A stretch of 64,000 nucleotides of DNA from Escherichia phage ECP2301: the sequence record OR880646.1; one strand, given 5' to 3'. Both the position numbers and the translations under genes were made by a program. The notes under the pieces are model-generated. The model was not told the DNA's origin. It saw only the letters and a list, made by a program, of their open reading frames with translations, and did not search any database. Below are positions 12 to 20,351 of the stretch, piece by piece (within the stretch, counting starts at the first letter, position 1; every line of letters starts with the position of its first letter).

Positions 12-2189
12 TTAGGCCGCAAGGGCCTTCATAGTTTTAGCGATTTGGGAAACTTCATCATCACTTAAAGAGTTGCGATAACCGATGAAGTCGGAAACAA
101 TACGGAATTTCTTGGTAAACTCAGCAACCATTTTATCACTATTTTTTGAAGCATTATTTGACAATACATCAAAAAGATTAGTTACTGTCCAGATGTCATG
201 ACCGATGGTACCTTTTCCACCGTTGAAATATATGCCCTGTAATGAACTAACCATATTACCAAGACGAGTATATTCTTCAGAAACTTTATCTACACTGAAG
301 TACTTCATCATAAAATCGAGTTCAGGATACTTGATAATTTTATCAATATATCGTTTAGCTGAACTTGAATAACCTACATACTTATCATAATCTACAGCAT
401 CAAAAGCATCTACATATAAATCACGCAGAGTTTCAAAAATACATTGGCACTGACCAAGTTCTTTTACCTTTTTCTGCAAAAGCGGACGAATAACATAAAA
501 TTCATTAATGCCAATAAGATTAGCCATACGAGTCAAAATACTCGTAGATGGATGACAAAGCGATGTAGTACCATCCATAGAGAAAATATCAGAACGATGC
601 ATATACGCTACATAACCAGTAATTTCATCTGCTTCTGATGTGAGCGTAAACAGTTCCTCTTTTTCCCAGCGCCCGTCTTTAATTTCAAACTTAAACGCAG
701 TAGCAGTTTTAGGACGAGGAGCTTTACTTTTAACTGCCTTCGGAATATAACTTTTAACTAAAGCTTCAATTTCTGACAAATAATGAATGTTAACTTCATC
801 ACTTTCAAACATTGCCATAATATCAGGGAGTAAATCAATCTGCGATTCTACTTCCGGATTAATAAACAGAAGACGCTCATTATGATGAATGTTCAAAGTG
901 TTGTTAAATTCTTTATCATCTAACGCATGCGCTAATCCACGGACAATATTAACACGATTTTTAATATTATCAATAACGATATTAATTTTTGTTGTATTAA
1001 TACCGAACAGACGATAACTTGATGCAATGGCTGAAGTTTCATGACTTTGCTTAATGCGTTTCAGTCGAGGGTCAAGATTTACTTCATACACAACTCCTGC
1101 ATTGCATAGTTTACTATCAGGTTCAAACATGCTTTGCATCTTCTTATATGACAGATTTTTAGTCGTAAATTTGACTGAATTACTAATCATATAATCTCGA
1201 GCAGAATATCCCATCTTCATCAATTCACGGTATGTATGACGAGGAGATGTAGATTCTTTAAATCGTTTTACATCTTCATTGAATGCCTTCTCACTAAGCT
1301 CTTTAACACGCTCAATAATATTTTTACGAGTACGATCATCTAGTGAAAGAGCTTCGCGTGATGGAGCAATATCAAGTGAACCCATTGGAAACTTAATGTA
1401 ATTCACTTCATTGCGGATGCTTAACCAGTTACGGTCTCTAATAACACCGTCAATAGGATAAACAATACCACCATAGATAGCGTACAATCCACCACGATCT
1501 GGCCAGTATCTTTCTGGATTTACACCGTAATAGTCATCAAAATCTGGAAAATAATCAATTTCGCGGTCAAGACCATTAATGATAGCCAAATCTTTGAATG
1601 GTCGCATGATATAAGAAACTTCATAAGCAAAGTTTCTAAAGTCTTTTTCTTCAACTGGAACTACGATTTCAATACCAGTTTTATCATCTGGACCCATTTC
1701 TTTTACGAATGTAGGTTTAATCTGCGGACCATCACCATCCATGTAAGCTACATAACCACGAATTTCGCCTTTATGATATGAAGTAATACTAAATGTATCA
1801 GTATAACTAAACGGAGATTTAGAACCTAAACCAAATCCGCCAATGAAATCGTTAGATTCAGCCTTAGATGAACTGAAGTATGAATTATACAACCCAGGAG
1901 AATTATCATCACCTTGAATATCAAAATCACTCATACCCGGACCAAAATCTCGGCAAACAAATCGCGGATCTAATCGTCCTGGAACTTGAATGATAAATTT
2001 TTCAGGATTTCCATTGAGAGCATGGGCATCAATCATGTTGGTAATCAATTCACGGACTACTGCGCGAATCTTGTTTGTATACAAATCAGATGACAGAATT
2101 TTAAATACTTTAGGAGATGCTGTGATGCTAAATGCTTTTGACTTAGAACCATTACCAAGAATTGTTTCTTTTTCAGTGGTGATAATCAT
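12..2189 (-). CDS. rIIA: rIIA membrane-associated protein (GHKL ATPase-like N-terminal region), 725 aa
   Basis: 725-aa ORF whose N-terminus ([20 protein letters not shown]...) and length match T4 rIIA as I recall it; ATG start with GAGGAA upstream. Confidence 0.93.
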
Positions 2190-4609: not shown

Positions 4610-4984
4610 TCACTCAAATTTAATGGCTTGAAGAAGACTAATAATTCTCAAGCGACTTCTTTCATCTTTAACTGTAAAGGAAAGAGGGTCACCAGATTTC
4701 ATAGTAATAGTACATTCAAAATCAAAATCTTCTTCGTGGACTTCTTCGAATAGGTCAAATTCTTCATCATAAATTAGAACATTACTCTGAAAACTGTGAA
4801 GAATTTTTCCGTCATTTCCAGATGCTGTACTAATCATTGTAACATTATTACCTTTCATATCTTCAACGATAAATTCGCTTGTAGATATTACATTACTAAT
4901 AGAACCATTCCTATAAATAGCAGAAAATAGATATTTCTTTTCTTCACCTTCGCGAATACGATATTTCTTACCAATTTTAAACAT
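4610..4984 (-). CDS. hypothetical protein, 124 aa
   Basis: ORF in tight minus-strand array, ATG start. Confidence 0.45.
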   Translation of the reverse strand: MFKIGKKYRIREGEEKKYLFSAIYRNGSISNVISTSEFIVEDMKGNNVTMISTASGNDGKILHSFQSNVLIYDEEFDLFEEVHEEDFDFECTITMKSGDPLSFTVKDERSRLRIISLLQAIKFE

Positions 4985-14781: not shown

Positions 14782-14991
14782 TTAAATTACATGACTATTT
14801 ATAATAAATTCTTGCGGAACGTTAAAATACCCAATTTTAGTTAATATAACAACATCACCGTTAATAATTACCAGAGAATAATCGGCTGGAGCATTAAACT
14901 TCCAATGGGCTCTAATATTATATCCATCAGAACCAAATGCTCGACTAGCCGGTCTCCCGGCTTTTTGCCATGCATAAAAATCAAATTTCAT
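14782..14991 (-). CDS. hypothetical protein, 69 aa
   Basis: ORF between soc and gene 56. Confidence 0.4.
   Translation of the reverse strand: MKFDFYAWQKAGRPASRAFGSDGYNIRAHWKFNAPADYSLVIINGDVVILTKIGYFNVPQEFIINSHVI
14796..14803 (-). promoter_or_regulatory. late promoter TATAAATA upstream of soc
   Basis: Exact TATAAATA on minus strand about 30 nt upstream of soc ATG. Confidence 0.6.
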
Positions 14992-15188
14992 TTTGAATGC
15001 TCTACAATTAATTTTAAGGCTTCTTCATGCACCTTACCTAATTGTATATGTCCAGTTTTAATTGTGTAAGCTTTGTGGAGCTGATTAGATAAGAGCTCGT
15101 ATGTGAGCTCCTTGTCATAATTTTTAAATAGCTGGTCAATACGTTTCTTGCGGGCTTTCTTAAGCTGGCGTTTATTTAAACGAGCCAT
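14988..15188 (-). CDS. hypothetical basic protein, 66 aa
   Basis: ORF between soc and gene 56. Confidence 0.4.
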   Translation of the reverse strand: MARLNKRQLKKARKKRIDQLFKNYDKELTYELLSNQLHKAYTIKTGHIQLGKVHEEALKLIVEHSK

Positions 15189-15706
15189 TAATAACCTCGG
15201 TCTTGACGAGCGAAGTTTTCAGCATTTTTCAGATAATAAAGTTTAAAGATTTCTTCAGCTGACATTCCAAGAGCAATAAATTTATTCATGAAAAAGTGAA
15301 ATTGATCAATCAATTCAAATTTAATTTCAAGTTGATCTTCAGGAGATAAATCTTGAATTTTCTTGGATTGCATTTCAGAATAACGTTTCTTCCAAGGTTT
15401 CCATACAGCAGAAGCTTCTTTTTCGCCATTACTCATACCACCAAGAGAAGTATATAGCTCGCGAGTTTCGTCTGCGATATAATCGTCTTGGTTTCGCAGC
15501 CAAGCAAGAACTTCTCCTGCAGTTTCAAGTGAATCGGGATGACGATTTGTTTCTGGTTTATCATTAGCCAAACGAATCTGTAAATGCCGCTGCATATCAA
15601 GCATAACCTGCAGTGGGTCAATATTGTGCATAATATTCTCAGCATATGCACGATTTGCTTTATCAACACCTTCGATCAAATGAGCGCATTCATTAAAGTA
15701 AGCCAT
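15188..15706 (-). CDS. 56: dCTP pyrophosphatase (MazG-like), about 172 aa
   Basis: Track ORF is N-terminally extended; ATG at 15706 (MAYFNECAHLIEG...) has AAGGAAA SD and gives a T4 gp56-like length. Confidence 0.8.
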   Translation of the reverse strand: MAYFNECAHLIEGVDKANRAYAENIMHNIDPLQVMLDMQRHLQIRLANDKPETNRHPDSLETAGEVLAWLRNQDDYIADETRELYTSLGGMSNGEKEASAVWKPWKKRYSEMQSKKIQDLSPEDQLEIKFELIDQFHFFMNKFIALGMSAEEIFKLYYLKNAENFARQDRGY

Positions 15707-15777
15707 TATTTTTCCTTTCAATTCATGGGTTAGTAGATTAATTATACAATAAATATATAAAGCAATAAGGAGGATAT

Positions 15778-15978
15778 ATGGTACAAAAATTAATGGCACT
15801 TGTTAATGCCATAAAAGGTAATAAAAAACGTATAGCTTTTACTATTTCTGCTATGGTAGGAATTTTACTCTGGAATTTTGTTTTATCACCAATTGCTATT
15901 GCTCATGGTGTTAATATTCCAGTAATTACTCTTGATACATTCGTAGATTTAGCATTTGCTTTAGTTGGGTTAATTTAA
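15778..15978 (+). CDS. small hydrophobic protein, 66 aa (plus strand)
   Basis: ATG preceded by strong SD (AAGGAGGATAT); two predicted TM helices; sits in the gp56-gp61 intergenic interval. Confidence 0.4.
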   Translation: MVQKLMALVNAIKGNKKRIAFTISAMVGILLWNFVLSPIAIAHGVNIPVITLDTFVDLAFALVGLI

Positions 15979-17003
15979 ATCTTAGCATATTTAGATAGCC
16001 GCATTTTAGCCATCAACCCTTGGGCAATATTATTTTTCATATATTCCATAATTTGTTTAGGGGTTGCACCTTCCTTTCTAATCATATCATTAACATCTTT
16101 TGATTTCCAGGGAGATTTGTCCCAAAACATAACCCTTTCTCCTGCATCAACTAATTTAGTCATTCGTTTAATAGTGTCAGGGTGACGAGGTTCATTATCT
16201 AAAACCCACACACGTCTATCTTTAAATGGAACAATTTCTAGGTCTAATTGACCGCCCGTAATAGCTATACCATTTTCAATAAAAAGTGAATCTATAGGTC
16301 CTTCTAGAACATATACATCGCCATCTTTGACTCGTTCAACTCCATAGATTTTTGTTGCCTCAGGATAAGCTTTGATAGTGATATATTTTTGAGGAGCATC
16401 TTTCTTTAATGCACGTCCTTGAAAAGACTCAGCTTTTCCATTAGCATTATAAATTGGAATAACAAGACGAGGCTCAGGTATTTCCTTTTTATATGTTCCT
16501 GGCGCTATACTATTAACTAATTTAGGCCATTCGGTTGTAAACCAAAGATATTTCCATTTATCCTTTGGAATACAACGAGCTTTTACATATTTTATAATTG
16601 GATGGTCTTCCGCCAGTTTATCTAATCTAATGCATGACGGAAGAGATTTAATTATTTTCTTCTCAGGTTGTTTAGGAAGTTCTTTAGGTTTTTCTACTGG
16701 ACGACTTTTACCTTTTTCTTTTCTTATTTCAAAGATATACTCACGATATAAATCAGGTTCAAACTCCTTTAAATATATTCCGATTGGTGCATGATAGTTG
16801 CAGTTATAACAATGAATATTTCCTTCATTATTATCGCCATAATACCATCCACGGGCTTTATTTTGATCGGTTTTTGAATCTCCACAAACAGGGCATCTAA
16901 ACCGCAATTTAAAAGTTGAACTATTATTTACTTGTGTGAATTTAGGTAAATGAGCTAATGCACGGTATGCAAACTCATTATCAATCCAAGGTATTGATGA
17001 CAT
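15975..17003 (-). CDS. 61: DNA primase (zinc-binding domain plus TOPRIM), 342 aa
   Basis: CPVCGD...HCYNC zinc-ribbon; 342 aa as T4 gp61; ATG start. Confidence 0.92.
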   Translation of the reverse strand: MSSIPWIDNEFAYRALAHLPKFTQVNNSSTFKLRFRCPVCGDSKTDQNKARGWYYGDNNEGNIHCYNCNYHAPIGIYLKEFEPDLYREYIFEIRKEKGKSRPVEKPKELPKQPEKKIIKSLPSCIRLDKLAEDHPIIKYVKARCIPKDKWKYLWFTTEWPKLVNSIAPGTYKKEIPEPRLVIPIYNANGKAESFQGRALKKDAPQKYITIKAYPEATKIYGVERVKDGDVYVLEGPIDSLFIENGIAITGGQLDLEIVPFKDRRVWVLDNEPRHPDTIKRMTKLVDAGERVMFWDKSPWKSKDVNDMIRKEGATPKQIMEYMKNNIAQGLMAKMRLSKYAKI

Positions 17004-17005
17004 TT

Positions 17006-17170
17006 TTACTCTTCTTTTTCTTTAGATTCCTCTTTTTTCTTTTTAGGAATCTGTTCAGGACCTTTATTTACTACAGCGCCTGACGTTGTTCCAGTGGAGA
17101 TATTTTCAGGATTACCACCTGAATCTCCAGCTACCATATCTTCTTTGATAAATTCTTTATATGTTTTCAT
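17006..17170 (-). CDS. small protein with capsid-targeting-like N-terminus (MKTYKEFIKE), 54 aa
   Basis: Hand-translated, below track cutoff; fills the gap exactly between the 17172..17798 stop and the gp61 start. Confidence 0.35.
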   Translation of the reverse strand: MKTYKEFIKEDMVAGDSGGNPENISTGTTSGAVVNKGPEQIPKKKKEESKEKEE

Positions 17171-17171
17171 A

Positions 17172-17798
17172 TTAACCTCTATTCATAAAAGCATTAAAAA
17201 TTTGGTCATCAATAGAAACATCTACTTTAGACTGTTTTTCTGATGGTAATTCATATCCACATATTACAATTTTGTGATCAATATCAAAATACACAGAAGC
17301 AATATGATTAATGATGTTTTCAGTAAAGTCTAAATCAACATCAATATCTTTTTGACCACAGCCCAAAGGATAAATAATGCGAGTAATTCGATTATCTTTA
17401 ACAAAGATTCCACCGACATACTCTGTGCTGCGTTTAAAGTCTACACGCCGACGAAATGAAAAATATTCAGGCTCTTTATGAGCTCGGCTCATAGGACACA
17501 ACGAGTAACTAGAATAAGAGATGTCAAATCCTACGCCTTCAATATGAGCCAAAGTATCATGATTAAACCAGTTATAATCGTACGCCAAATCCATTAGATT
17601 ATAATATGTAAAAGGCACCGGATTAACGTCATTAGTCACAAGCATGTAATTAGCAACTGCTATAATTTCATTGTTTTTAACGAATACAAACCGTGATTGA
17701 TGCGAATGACCTGGACCTGCGTTTTCACGATTAATGATATAACACTGGGCACCTTTATATTTGTATGTATCTTTGCACTTGTGCATTTGATAGAGCAT
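17172..17798 (-). CDS. hypothetical protein, 208 aa
   Basis: ORF, ATG start. Confidence 0.5.
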   Translation of the reverse strand: MLYQMHKCKDTYKYKGAQCYIINRENAGPGHSHQSRFVFVKNNEIIAVANYMLVTNDVNPVPFTYYNLMDLAYDYNWFNHDTLAHIEGVGFDISYSSYSLCPMSRAHKEPEYFSFRRRVDFKRSTEYVGGIFVKDNRITRIIYPLGCGQKDIDVDLDFTENIINHIASVYFDIDHKIVICGYELPSEKQSKVDVSIDDQIFNAFMNRG

Positions 17799-18091
17799 TA
17801 TTCACCTACAACTTCAGCAATGATATTTTTATTATTAAAGTTTTTATCGCAATACAGAACATAATTATACTGCATTACACCGCCAGACTTAAGTTGTTTT
17901 TGTACCTCAGCTTTCATTTCAGGACGATCACGCTCAACGATATTCATAATATCCGCTTCAATTTGAGTTTCAACCTCAGTCTGATCTGCAGTCATAGACC
18001 ATTCACACAAATCTTTGTCATAACCCGCCATAGCAGGCTGAGCAGTACAAGAAGCCAAAGCAAAAATTGCAGCAAAAACAAATTTTTTCAT
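17798..18091 (-). CDS. sp: periplasmic protein Spackle, 97 aa
   Basis: Signal peptide MKKFVFAAIFALASCTAQPAMA; 97 aa and position in the 61-41 interval as T4 sp. Confidence 0.7.
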   Translation of the reverse strand: MKKFVFAAIFALASCTAQPAMAGYDKDLCEWSMTADQTEVETQIEADIMNIVERDRPEMKAEVQKQLKSGGVMQYNYVLYCDKNFNNKNIIAEVVGE

Positions 18092-18194
18092 GATAATCTC
18101 CTCAGTAGTTTATGTTTATAGTATCTCAATTTTCAACAAAAGTAAACACTAGTAGAAGCAAACAGACAAATTGCAATAATTGGTGATTTCAGTT

Positions 18195-18377
18195 TCATTC
18201 TTCTCCTCCTTCGTGTTGATGAACATATTCTTTTTCAAGTCTAGAGCACAAGTTTTCATATTCAACTAATAAAAATGAATCAAGTGCGTTATTTCTATGC
18301 TGACACCGTTCTTGTAAAGAATCCATCTCTGAACGTTGTTCTTGTGTTAATAATTGATAACCTGATACTTTAGACAT
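18195..18377 (-). CDS. hypothetical protein, 60 aa
   Basis: ORF, ATG start; early promoter upstream. Confidence 0.45.
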   Translation of the reverse strand: MSKVSGYQLLTQEQRSEMDSLQERCQHRNNALDSFLLVEYENLCSRLEKEYVHQHEGGEE

Positions 18378-18406
18378 TTTGTTCTCCGCGATTAGCTGAT
18401 AGAATT

Positions 18407-18436
18407 ACTATAACACAACTCTATCAGCTTGTAAAC
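18407..18436 (-). promoter_or_regulatory. early promoter (GTTTAC / TATAGT)
   Basis: 18-bp spacing; upstream of 18195..18377. Confidence 0.45.
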
Positions 18437-18438
18437 TA

Positions 18439-18720
18439 CTATTTTACTAGCATCAATAACTGTTTCTCTAACTTGGCGATTTTACGAAAGTATCTTTTGC
18501 ACTGACGAATCTGTCGCTTCGTAGGGCGCACAGCAAACTTAATAAATTCCACTCGACCAAATGGAGGGCTTTCTTCTGCCGGAATATCTAATACTAATTC
18601 CCACGTATCTGCAATAAGTGCTTTGAATTGAGTATTTTTCCTGACGTTATATGGAGTAGGTTTAAATAAAACAATATGCATATTATCCTCGGCAATCCAC
18701 TTCGCATACTTTCTTGTCAT
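18439..18720 (-). CDS. hypothetical basic protein, 93 aa
   Basis: ORF; start moved to second codon ATG. Confidence 0.45.
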   Translation of the reverse strand: MTRKYAKWIAEDNMHIVLFKPTPYNVRKNTQFKALIADTWELVLDIPAEESPPFGRVEFIKFAVRPTKRQIRQCKRYFRKIAKLEKQLLMLVK

Positions 18721-18865
18721 CAATGAAAGCTTTAACTAGTGCTTTATTAACTTCAGCATATTGATTAGTAGCCCATTGAACGTCATCTTTCATCATTGTG
18801 ATTTCTTTAGTAAACATGCTTTCGTTCTTAAACCACCCCATAAAAACTACCTTTACCAATTCCAT
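18683..18865 (-). CDS. dmd: Dmd (discriminator of mRNA degradation), 60 aa
   Basis: Sequence MELVKVVFMGWFKNESMFTKEITMMKDDVQW... matches T4 Dmd as I recall it. Confidence 0.8.
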   Translation of the reverse strand: MELVKVVFMGWFKNESMFTKEITMMKDDVQWATNQYAEVNKALVKAFIDDKKVCEVDCRG

Positions 18866-18894
18866 AAAAATCTCCTCATTTAACCAACAAGACT

Positions 18895-18924
18895 ACTATA
18901 CCATAGTCTTGTTGGCTTGTAAAC
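18895..18924 (-). promoter_or_regulatory. early promoter (GTTTAC / TATAGT) upstream of dmd
   Basis: 18-bp spacing; -35 overlaps gene 41 stop. Confidence 0.45.
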
Positions 18925-20351
18925 TAAAATTTTAATTCATTCGCTAAAGCATCTAACTGAGCTCGAGCGGATTCGTTTCTTTGATAGCGATTCTGTTCAG
19001 CCTGAATCTGCTGTGAACCTGCTACTTCGTTCACTTCAGTTGGAGTAGAATCTTGTTCAATTTCTACCCATTTCTGATTTCCTTTTTGAACACCCATTAA
19101 AAACTTATTCCATTTATTCTTATCACCATATCGTGATTTGATTTGCTTAATGAGTTGTTGTTCAGCAGCTGCTAACTCCTCGGTTTCAATGACCGCAAGC
19201 ATAAAATCGGCTGTTGCTGGAAGACCGGCAGATTCCGCAATATCGCTCATGTTAACATCAGAAGAATCCCAAGCTTGCTTACCAACCTGTGCTGCAGTCC
19301 AAAGAACGGTTTCGGTTTCAACAGCCAGAGCACGCAATTCCTCTGCGATAGCTTTAACAGTTGTGTAACTATTTTCTGAATAAACTCTGATGCGGCAAGA
19401 TTTACAAATACCTAGATAGTCAACAATAATGATTGTTGGAACAAAATTCTTCTTGAGCTTTAATTCATTTAAAAGCGACCGAAATGTATTAGCGTCTGCT
19501 CCACCAGTAGGATATTGCTTAACGATTAAACGACCGAGAGTAGATTTCTCACGCCATTTTTCCATTTTTCCTTTATACTCAGCGTAAGAAATATGTCCAT
19601 CATCAATGTCATCAAGAGAAACATCAAGCATATTAGCGTCAATACGCTTAGCACAAACTTCTTCTGCCATTTCCATGGAAATGTAAAGAACATTATGTCC
19701 GAGCTGCAAATAATCTGCTGCTAATGAACACAGACCTAATGACTTACCAACGTTAACACCAGCCATTAAAACATTCAGTGTTCCAGTTTCAGCTCCGCCT
19801 TTAGTAATTTTATTTAGAATTTTGAGTTTAAATGGAACCTTACGAGCTTTATTCATATAAGATAGCCAACGTGCTTCGTAGTCATCCATCCAATCATGAC
19901 CAACGTAACTATCAAATGAAATTGATAATGCTTGGCGCATGATGTCAGGAATAGCACCTACATCTGGCATTTTCTTATTTCGTTTTTCTGGAGGAAGCTC
20001 AGCATTAGTTTGAATTTCAATTATTTTAGATGTGGCGTTAAACATCGCCCTTTGCTGAACATATTTTTCTGTTTCTTTTACTAACCAGCTGTGGTCTTCT
20101 GGAGAATCGGCTAGTTTCGAAATAAGTGTTTTTACACCAGAATATTCTGTTTCAGTAAATGAACTATTTTCTAATGCAACATTTAACGCATTAATAGATG
20201 GAACGCTATGGTACTCATTAACATGAGATTTAATTAATTTGAATGTATTTTTAGCTGGACCACTTTCAAAATATTCTGAATCCATATATGGCCAAACTTT
20301 TGAAAAATAAGCTTGATCAAATATGAGATGAGAAAGAATAATTTCTACCAC
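18924..20351 (-). CDS. 41: replicative DNA helicase (DnaB-like), 475 aa
   Basis: Walker A GVNVGKS; 475 aa; N-terminus MVEIILSHLIF as T4 gp41; start codon is GTG. Confidence 0.93.
   Translation of the reverse strand: MVEIILSHLIFDQAYFSKVWPYMDSEYFESGPAKNTFKLIKSHVNEYHSVPSINALNVALENSSFTETEYSGVKTLISKLADSPEDHSWLVKETEKYVQQRAMFNATSKIIEIQTNAELPPEKRNKKMPDVGAIPDIMRQALSISFDSYVGHDWMDDYEARWLSYMNKARKVPFKLKILNKITKGGAETGTLNVLMAGVNVGKSLGLCSLAADYLQLGHNVLYISMEMAEEVCAKRIDANMLDVSLDDIDDGHISYAEYKGKMEKWREKSTLGRLIVKQYPTGGADANTFRSLLNELKLKKNFVPTIIIVDYLGICKSCRIRVYSENSYTTVKAIAEELRALAVETETVLWTAAQVGKQAWDSSDVNMSDIAESAGLPATADFMLAVIETEELAAAEQQLIKQIKSRYGDKNKWNKFLMGVQKGNQKWVEIEQDSTPTEVNEVAGSQQIQAEQNRYQRNESARAQLDALANELKF

Follow-up and report, generated by a model that had tools for sequence, protein, structure and literature searches.

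Organization of the interval between genes 56 and 61

The stretch of DNA analysed here, 64,000 nucleotides in length and referred to below as the window, belongs to a T4-like (Tequatrovirus) genome and begins at rIIA. Over the first 25 kb, identity to PP01, ime09, KFS-EC3, and other phages is approximately 97%, and the 400 bp around the interval between genes 56 and 61 are a 99.8% match to Ec_MI-02. The features of the interval and its two flanking genes are as follows, in window coordinates.

15188..15709, minus strand: gene 56 (dCTPase/dUTPase), 173 amino acids; matches phrog_173 (E = 2e-44) and can be aligned to T4 gp56 and the sequence upstream
15710..15974: gap between genes 56 and 61, 265 bp
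15741..15767, minus strand: predicted MotA-type middle promoter of gene 56, composed of TATTGCTTTA (15767..15758), an 11-nt spacer, and the extended -10 element TGTATAAT (15748..15741)
15747..15766, no strand: empty site of the dam cassette, 20 bp in place of the 899 bp of T4 (16826..17724)
15748..15755, plus strand: late-promoter-like core AATAAATA, gp55 type, with A at -13; 22 nt separate its end from the dam.1 ATG
15767..15773, plus strand: Shine-Dalgarno sequence AAGGAGG of dam.1, 4 nt before the ATG
15778..15978, plus strand: dam.1 ORF, 66 amino acids (PHROG 2024)
15783..15812, minus strand: terminator-like hairpin and T-run within the dam.1 coding sequence, downstream of gene 61; stem of 8 pairs, of which 3 are G-C
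15975..17003, minus strand: gene 61 (DNA primase); matches phrog_47 (E = 2e-106), with a primase annotation in all related records

A sequence-only reading of this DNA had described a spacing of about 270 bp between genes 56 and 61, together with a plus-strand ORF of 66 amino acids preceded by a strong Shine-Dalgarno sequence. Both descriptions agreed with our measurements, the gap being 265 bp and the ORF lying directly behind AAGGAGG. The name dam.1 is that of the T6 record, and the record for VR7 ties the same ORF to RB32 ORF030w. The ORF is convergent with gene 61, and the stops of the two genes overlap by 4 nt.

The only other ORF of at least 25 amino acids detected in the gap was a spurious extension of gene 56 from a GTG start. 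This extension, a 203-amino acid frame (15188..15799, minus strand) that would run over the promoter region into dam.1, was rejected because the T4 start disagrees with it. The real start of gene 56 is the T4-equivalent ATG at 15709, which has its own ribosome-binding site and yields the 173-amino acid protein.

Adjacent to gene 56, a pair of small ORFs (69 and 66 amino acids) occupies 14782..15188 (minus strand) of the window, where T4 (15606..16280) has the homing endonuclease gene segF between soc and 56. The two ORFs are also present in T6 (T6ORF029 and soc.2), and the position constitutes a second presence/absence site beside that of dam.

Absence of dam

In the T4 reference genome (NC_000866), gene 56 is located at 16270..16785, dam at 16846..17625, and gene 61 at 17935..18963. 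The sequence-only reading had placed T4 dam, with some uncertainty, near this region, and this placement was correct, with dam lying exactly between 56 and 61. Comparison of the T4 interval with the window by blastn yielded two blocks, with T4 16736..16825 corresponding to 15657..15746 and T4 17725..17999 to 15767..16039. The 899 bp of T4 that separate these blocks consist of dam, the sequence upstream of dam, and what is left of a gene for a protein of 186 amino acids.

The same reading had noticed no Dam-like ORF in the window and had proposed a tblastn search with T4 Dam. We performed this search on the window and, as a stand-in for the full genome, on the complete genome of Ec_MI-02 (OP856590.1), which is 97.4% identical to the window over 61.5 kb. 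No Dam homologue was found in the 64-kb window (best E = 1.5), in agreement with that reading, or anywhere in the complete Ec_MI-02 genome (best E = 1.0). The Dam catalytic motif (D/N/S)PP(Y/F/W) was also absent from all ORF segments of at least 120 amino acids in the window. As judged from its sequence, the window is a dam-less, T6-type allele of the 56–61 interval with no encoded Dam; beyond the 64 kb, the predicted absence of Dam rests on relatives and database counts. Given that the complete genome of Ec_MI-02 contains no Dam, we can fairly infer that the GATC sites of the phage would receive no phage-made N6-methyladenine, a difference in methylation from T4.

T4 also holds the dam.1 ORF, at 17738..17938, with 62 of the 66 amino acids identical and only conservative changes at the others. 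On this comparison, dam.1 is not a substitute for dam, because T4 has the same ORF beside dam, and for the same reason the ORF is independent of the short interval. T4 further resembles the window in the convergent overlap of dam.1 with gene 61 and in the middle promoter that lies upstream of gene 56, and differs from it by the additional 899 bp that contain dam and the remnant of a restriction-enzyme-like gene.

The corresponding region of T6 (MH550421.1, 15641..17456) is like the window in gene order, strands, lack of dam, promoter region (ACAATAAATATATAAAGCAATAAGGAGG), and overlapping stops. It differs in a few conservative substitutions and in the presence of TTG at the position of the dam.1 ATG (L019 3232..3432), with the T6 record annotating a protein of 61 amino acids that starts at Met6. 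The TTG is probably the true start of T6 dam.1, because Met6 is too far from the Shine-Dalgarno sequence and is not conserved in other lineages.

Alleles of the interval and origin of the dam-less state

The interval was contiguous, and so dam-less, in 322 of 505 matching phage records. T4-like Dam at an identity of at least 90% was present in 182 records, which covers essentially all of the 183 split intervals. The dam-less layout is an already known state and that of the majority, applying to about two thirds of sequenced relatives. A paper from 2026 describes a Dam-like gene as present in only some Tequatroviruses (PMC13390438), and a 2010 review of T4-family genomes does not mention dam.

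Three alleles of the interval were distinguished. The first, that of the window and T6, is empty. In the second, seen in the Tequatrovirus locus L014 and in phages Geo, EL, and BGP (PMC13390438), dam is accompanied by the gene for the 186-amino acid protein, which overlaps dam by ATGA (in L014, 1841..2401 on the minus strand for this gene and 1062..1841 for dam). The flanks (56, dam.1, and 61) and the insertion point of this allele are the same as those of the window, which lacks both of the two extra genes. Records with this allele number about 155. The third allele is that of T4, in which dam is followed by what remains, in frameshifted form, of the final 28 codons of the 186-amino acid gene (17628..17710), approximately 540 bp having been deleted.

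The gene for the 186-amino acid protein was found in 164 records, in 154 of these at an identity of at least 95%, and showed a weak, sub-threshold match to the DpnII restriction enzyme (E = 0.004). Most dam-bearing Tequatroviruses carry this gene (164 records, versus 182 with Dam). T4 dam looks like the orphan of a putative pair consisting of a methylase and a restriction-enzyme-like protein, because just the frameshifted 28-codon remnant of the second gene remains.

The order 56, small ORF, 61 without dam was also observed in Gaprivervirus VR7 and MN01, in Jiaodavirus Boboto, and in four divergent lineages from metagenomes, of which two probably belong to Mosigvirus. Because all the other lineages examined are without dam, the empty site is most likely ancestral, and dam would be an insertion within Tequatrovirus. 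We also considered that dam might have been lost recently by deletion from a T4-like ancestor. T4 itself demonstrates that deletions occur here, given the 28-codon remnant beside its dam, and TAATT-like repeats are present on both sides of the T4 cassette. The window, however, retains no remnant of dam or of the 186-amino acid gene, its junction is not what a simple deletion between the repeats of T4 would leave, and the empty layout is found in all other genera examined. Recent loss is thus an unlikely origin for the window allele, and we favor an ancestral empty site.

Conservation of dam.1

The dam.1 protein matched PHROG 2024 (E = 5.4e-31), with residues 2-66 aligned to positions 1-65 of the 65 positions of the profile. 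A tblastn search with dam.1 identified 703 phage records, 502 of them at an identity of at least 80%, and among the matches listed, dam.1 abuts the primase gene in every record with a named neighbor. Family members are located in Tequatrovirus, Gaprivervirus, Jiaodavirus, and divergent lineages, in all cases between 56 and 61, and the window copy likewise lies between these genes on the opposite strand and converges on 61. An exhaustive profile search with dam.1 among 1.84 billion representatives returned six clusters only; the family is therefore confined to the T4-like phage group, without distant annotated relatives.

Conservation of the small ORF was apparent not only in the number of records but also in the pattern of substitution. 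The dN/dS ratio of dam.1 was 0.06-0.29 overall and 0.12-0.29 within Tequatrovirus; between genera, synonymous sites were saturated (pS of 0.7-0.8), with pN of 0.23-0.39. Residues W32, N33, P38, G44, and P48 do not vary, and an acidic residue is always found at position 53. The window protein contains the conserved core WN(F/Y/L)xxxP...G...P followed approximately five positions later by an acidic residue, D53. A GGAG-type Shine-Dalgarno sequence precedes dam.1 in nine of nine lineages.

In spite of its presence in T4, the ORF is not annotated in the T4 records NC_000866 and AF158101 or in the 1984 record X01416, and it is called in an automated T4 record of the 2020s. A literature search on T4 and dam.1 yielded no transcript-start, ribosome-footprint, or peptide evidence, nor the name 'dam.1'.

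Gaprivervirus has a tandem paralog of dam.1 between dam.1 and gene 61 (1701..1901, plus strand, in MN01, L021; 1693..1900 in VR7, L020). The paralog retains the WN..P..G..P core; the VR7 copy is unannotated and its end is unlike that of the MN01 copy.

The coding sequence of dam.1 also contains, on the early strand, the terminator-like hairpin and T-run listed above. One such hairpin was found in the scanned 900 bp, compared with an expectation of 0.5. It is identical in T4 and is not kept in other lineages, and it could act as a terminator for some gene 61 transcripts. As the cause of dam.1 conservation, this hairpin was rejected, given that it is not kept outside Tequatrovirus. An Rfam scan of 15000..17200 gave no match.

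The hairpin bears on a broader alternative, namely that the small ORF is not a gene and that the stretch is maintained because it belongs to the oriA region or serves gene 61 as a terminator or 3' untranslated region, with the open frame being incidental. Such a reading would fit the presence within the ORF of the early-strand hairpin and T-run, the lack of a gene here in the T4 reference annotation and in the 1984 record, and the position of T4 oriA, which adjoins. It conflicts, however, with a frame that has stayed open behind a GGAG-type Shine-Dalgarno sequence in nine lineages despite saturated synonymous sites, as well as with the low dN/dS values, the invariant polar and proline residues of the protein, the loss of the hairpin outside Tequatrovirus, the lack of an Rfam match, and the tandem paralog in Gaprivervirus. 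We consider a noncoding origin of the pattern highly improbable. On its substitution pattern, the conservation of dam.1 cannot be explained by chance or by an untranslated region. By these sequence measures, dam.1 is a real protein-coding gene under purifying selection across several T4-like genera, T4 included.

Predicted promoters and late expression of dam.1

T4 middle promoters have the consensus wwwTGCTTtA separated by 12 ± 1 bp from TAtaaT (PMC2988021). The middle promoter predicted from sequence upstream of gene 56 conforms to the MotA-box consensus and is colinear with the T4 promoter of X01416, in which the mot-box is at 1487..1493 and the -10 element at 1508..1513. This colinearity identifies it as the ortholog of P(M)16.53 of T4, which lies upstream of gene 56/'69' and serves as the oriA primer promoter. 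A scan for sigma-70 promoters yielded no more matches than did shuffled sequences, and the middle promoter was identified from its MotA box.

On the plus strand, AATAAATA at 15748..15755 matches the T4 late promoter TATAAATA, which is centred near -10 and requires no -35 element, at seven of eight positions. The A at -13 is the commonest variant, occurring in 9 of 50 T4 late promoters listed (PMC2988020). In the T4 late region, inh and gene 15 are preceded by AATAAATA at similar spacing, and a dozen late genes have TATAAATA 15-36 nt upstream. The equivalent core upstream of T4 dam.1 is GATAAATA, with G rather than A at -13.

The ATAAATA core is depleted in the window by a factor of approximately 3.6, with 11 copies on both strands versus an expected 39.7 ± 6.4. 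Such a core is nevertheless situated 12-22 nt upstream of the dam.1 ATG in eight of nine lineages, even though the flanks do not align; the exception, lineage L006, has TATTAATA instead of an ATAAATA-type core. Among lineages, the core changes its place with respect to the opposite middle promoter. In the dam-less allele the promoters are interleaved: the middle-promoter spacer contains the late core, and the dam.1 Shine-Dalgarno sequence abuts the MotA box.

Only late T4 transcripts use the polarity of dam.1 (PMC2988020). The dam.1 homolog of Ec_MI-02 (EcMI02_0033, 16434..16634) is the sole plus-strand coding sequence among the first 144 of that genome (OP856590.1 1..75349). Because early and middle T4 transcription is all on the other strand, dam.1 should be expressible late only, and we infer that it is a late gene driven by the predicted gp55-type promoter. 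No plus-strand terminator was found in 15900..18200, and a late transcript should therefore run antisense into gene 61.

The full TATAAATA occurs six times in the window, compared with an expectation of 10.6. One exact copy, on the plus strand at 4912..4919, is inside the early region, where it could mark a further late start that runs clockwise, antisense to early genes.

The small genes repEA and repEB at T4 oriE are similar to dam.1 in that they are small ORFs opposite the surrounding genes and beside a replication origin. They differ in being located within a late gene and on the early strand, the reverse of the arrangement of dam.1, and show no sequence relation to it.

Predicted structure of the dam.1 protein

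A structure model of dam.1 obtained with AlphaFold from eight sequences had a mean pLDDT of 75, a moderate value, and comprised helices at residues 2-13, 16-42, and 52-62. Residues 2-13 are amphipathic and are followed by a basic cluster, KGNKKR, at 13-18. The hydrophobic core spans residues 19-42 or so, with the 19-residue Kyte-Doolittle mean peaking near 2.0 over residues 27-34. The long predicted transmembrane helix bears the conserved WN..P motif and is succeeded by an HG..P loop and a short COOH-terminal helix. The tail contains D53 and D57 and ends in ...AFALVGLI, with no charge after D57.

These properties suggest that dam.1 inserts into the inner membrane with a single long span and, by the positive-inside rule, with its basic NH2-terminus in the cytoplasm. 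The COOH-terminal helix could form a second span; because the tail of the Jiaodavirus protein is too short to cross the membrane, we favor a single span followed by a short tail in the periplasm or at the membrane interface.

Searches for relatives did not point to a function. No family in Pfam or NCBIfam matched dam.1 even at E ≤ 1. A PDB profile search suggested NqrE (E = 0.028), which was rejected as a generic transmembrane match. Foldseek comparison with viral models recovered family members and two 63-amino acid proteins of other T4-like phages (27-28% identical), none of them with a known function, and BLASTP gave no alignment of dam.1 with the Imm protein of the window at E ≤ 100.

Possible functions of dam.1

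Overall, it is quite probable that the anatomy of the interval is as described here and that dam.1 is a real, late, membrane-protein gene. What the protein does is a matter for more tentative proposals, and three were weighed: a function in the envelope exerted through a partner, direct action in lysis, and action as a toxin.

As the conserved polar and proline residues would suggest, dam.1 may have a late envelope function, such as in lysis timing, lysis inhibition, or superinfection exclusion, that is exerted through a specific membrane partner. We offer this role as a guess, possible but less likely to be right than wrong. The T4 proteins Imm (superinfection immunity) and RI (antiholin) are of a similar size class and also have hydrophobic helices, and they are plausible models for an envelope protein shorter than 100 amino acids that acts through a partner. 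Imm is an early product, and RI is produced early as well as late. Unlike these proteins, dam.1 would be made late only and has no sizeable periplasmic domain.

That dam.1 might be a holin or another direct lysis effector is suggested by its small size, its hydrophobicity, and its inferred late expression, as well as by the label 'Holin' that UniProt gives to one family member, from phage OE5505. This label looks automated, however, and no holin family in Pfam or NCBIfam matched. Holins have charged COOH-terminal tails, whereas the COOH-terminus of dam.1 is hydrophobic and uncharged. There is also no linkage to an endolysin, the neighbors being genes for a dCTPase and a primase, and the holin (156173..156829) and spanin (133743..134392) genes of Ec_MI-02 are far from dam.1 at 16434..16634. 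A direct lytic role is accordingly improbable in our estimation.

The arrangement of the locus, in which a small hydrophobic ORF is fully overlapped by the early unit 61 -> 56 and both converges on and overlaps gene 61, would be compatible with a membrane peptide resembling a type I toxin, whose mRNA would be silenced by abundant early read-through transcripts of gene 61 until the late period. Conservation at specific positions (W32, N33, P38, G44, and P48) is nevertheless rare in such toxins, no dedicated antisense RNA element was found with Rfam, and a postsegregational toxin has no obvious use to a lytic phage. We regard a toxin as slightly less probable even than a holin, and the envelope protein acting through a partner remains our preferred proposal.

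The arrangement of the promoters allows a sequence of events to be proposed. Without the dam cassette, the approximately 0.9-kb T4 insert between the dam.1 Shine-Dalgarno sequence and the MotA box of gene 56 is absent, and a compact divergent control region would result. During the middle period, RNA polymerase with MotA/AsiA would fire leftward into gene 56, from the promoter that in T4 also primes oriA; during the late period, RNA polymerase with gp55 would fire rightward from the overlapping AATAAATA core. The late transcript would give rise both to a small inner-membrane protein and to RNA antisense to gene 61. In its fullest form, the proposal is that dam.1, as the sole clockwise gene in an early arm of approximately 75 kb, encodes a late envelope protein and that its unterminated antisense transcript helps to switch off primase synthesis; we put this combination forward as a doubtful one, less probable than the envelope role taken by itself.

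Significance

For annotators, the phage is of the T6 type and belongs to the Dam-less majority of Tequatrovirus. The absence of Dam bears on the behavior of the DNA in restriction digests, on methylation calls from nanopore or SMRT sequencing, and on host defences that sense phage methyltransferases. A preprint describes activation of the retron Ec86 by a phage-encoded methyltransferase (PMC12871103). The interval also provides a modest lead: dam.1 is a conserved and selected gene, probably for a late membrane protein, that the T4 reference annotation leaves out and to which no function has been assigned.
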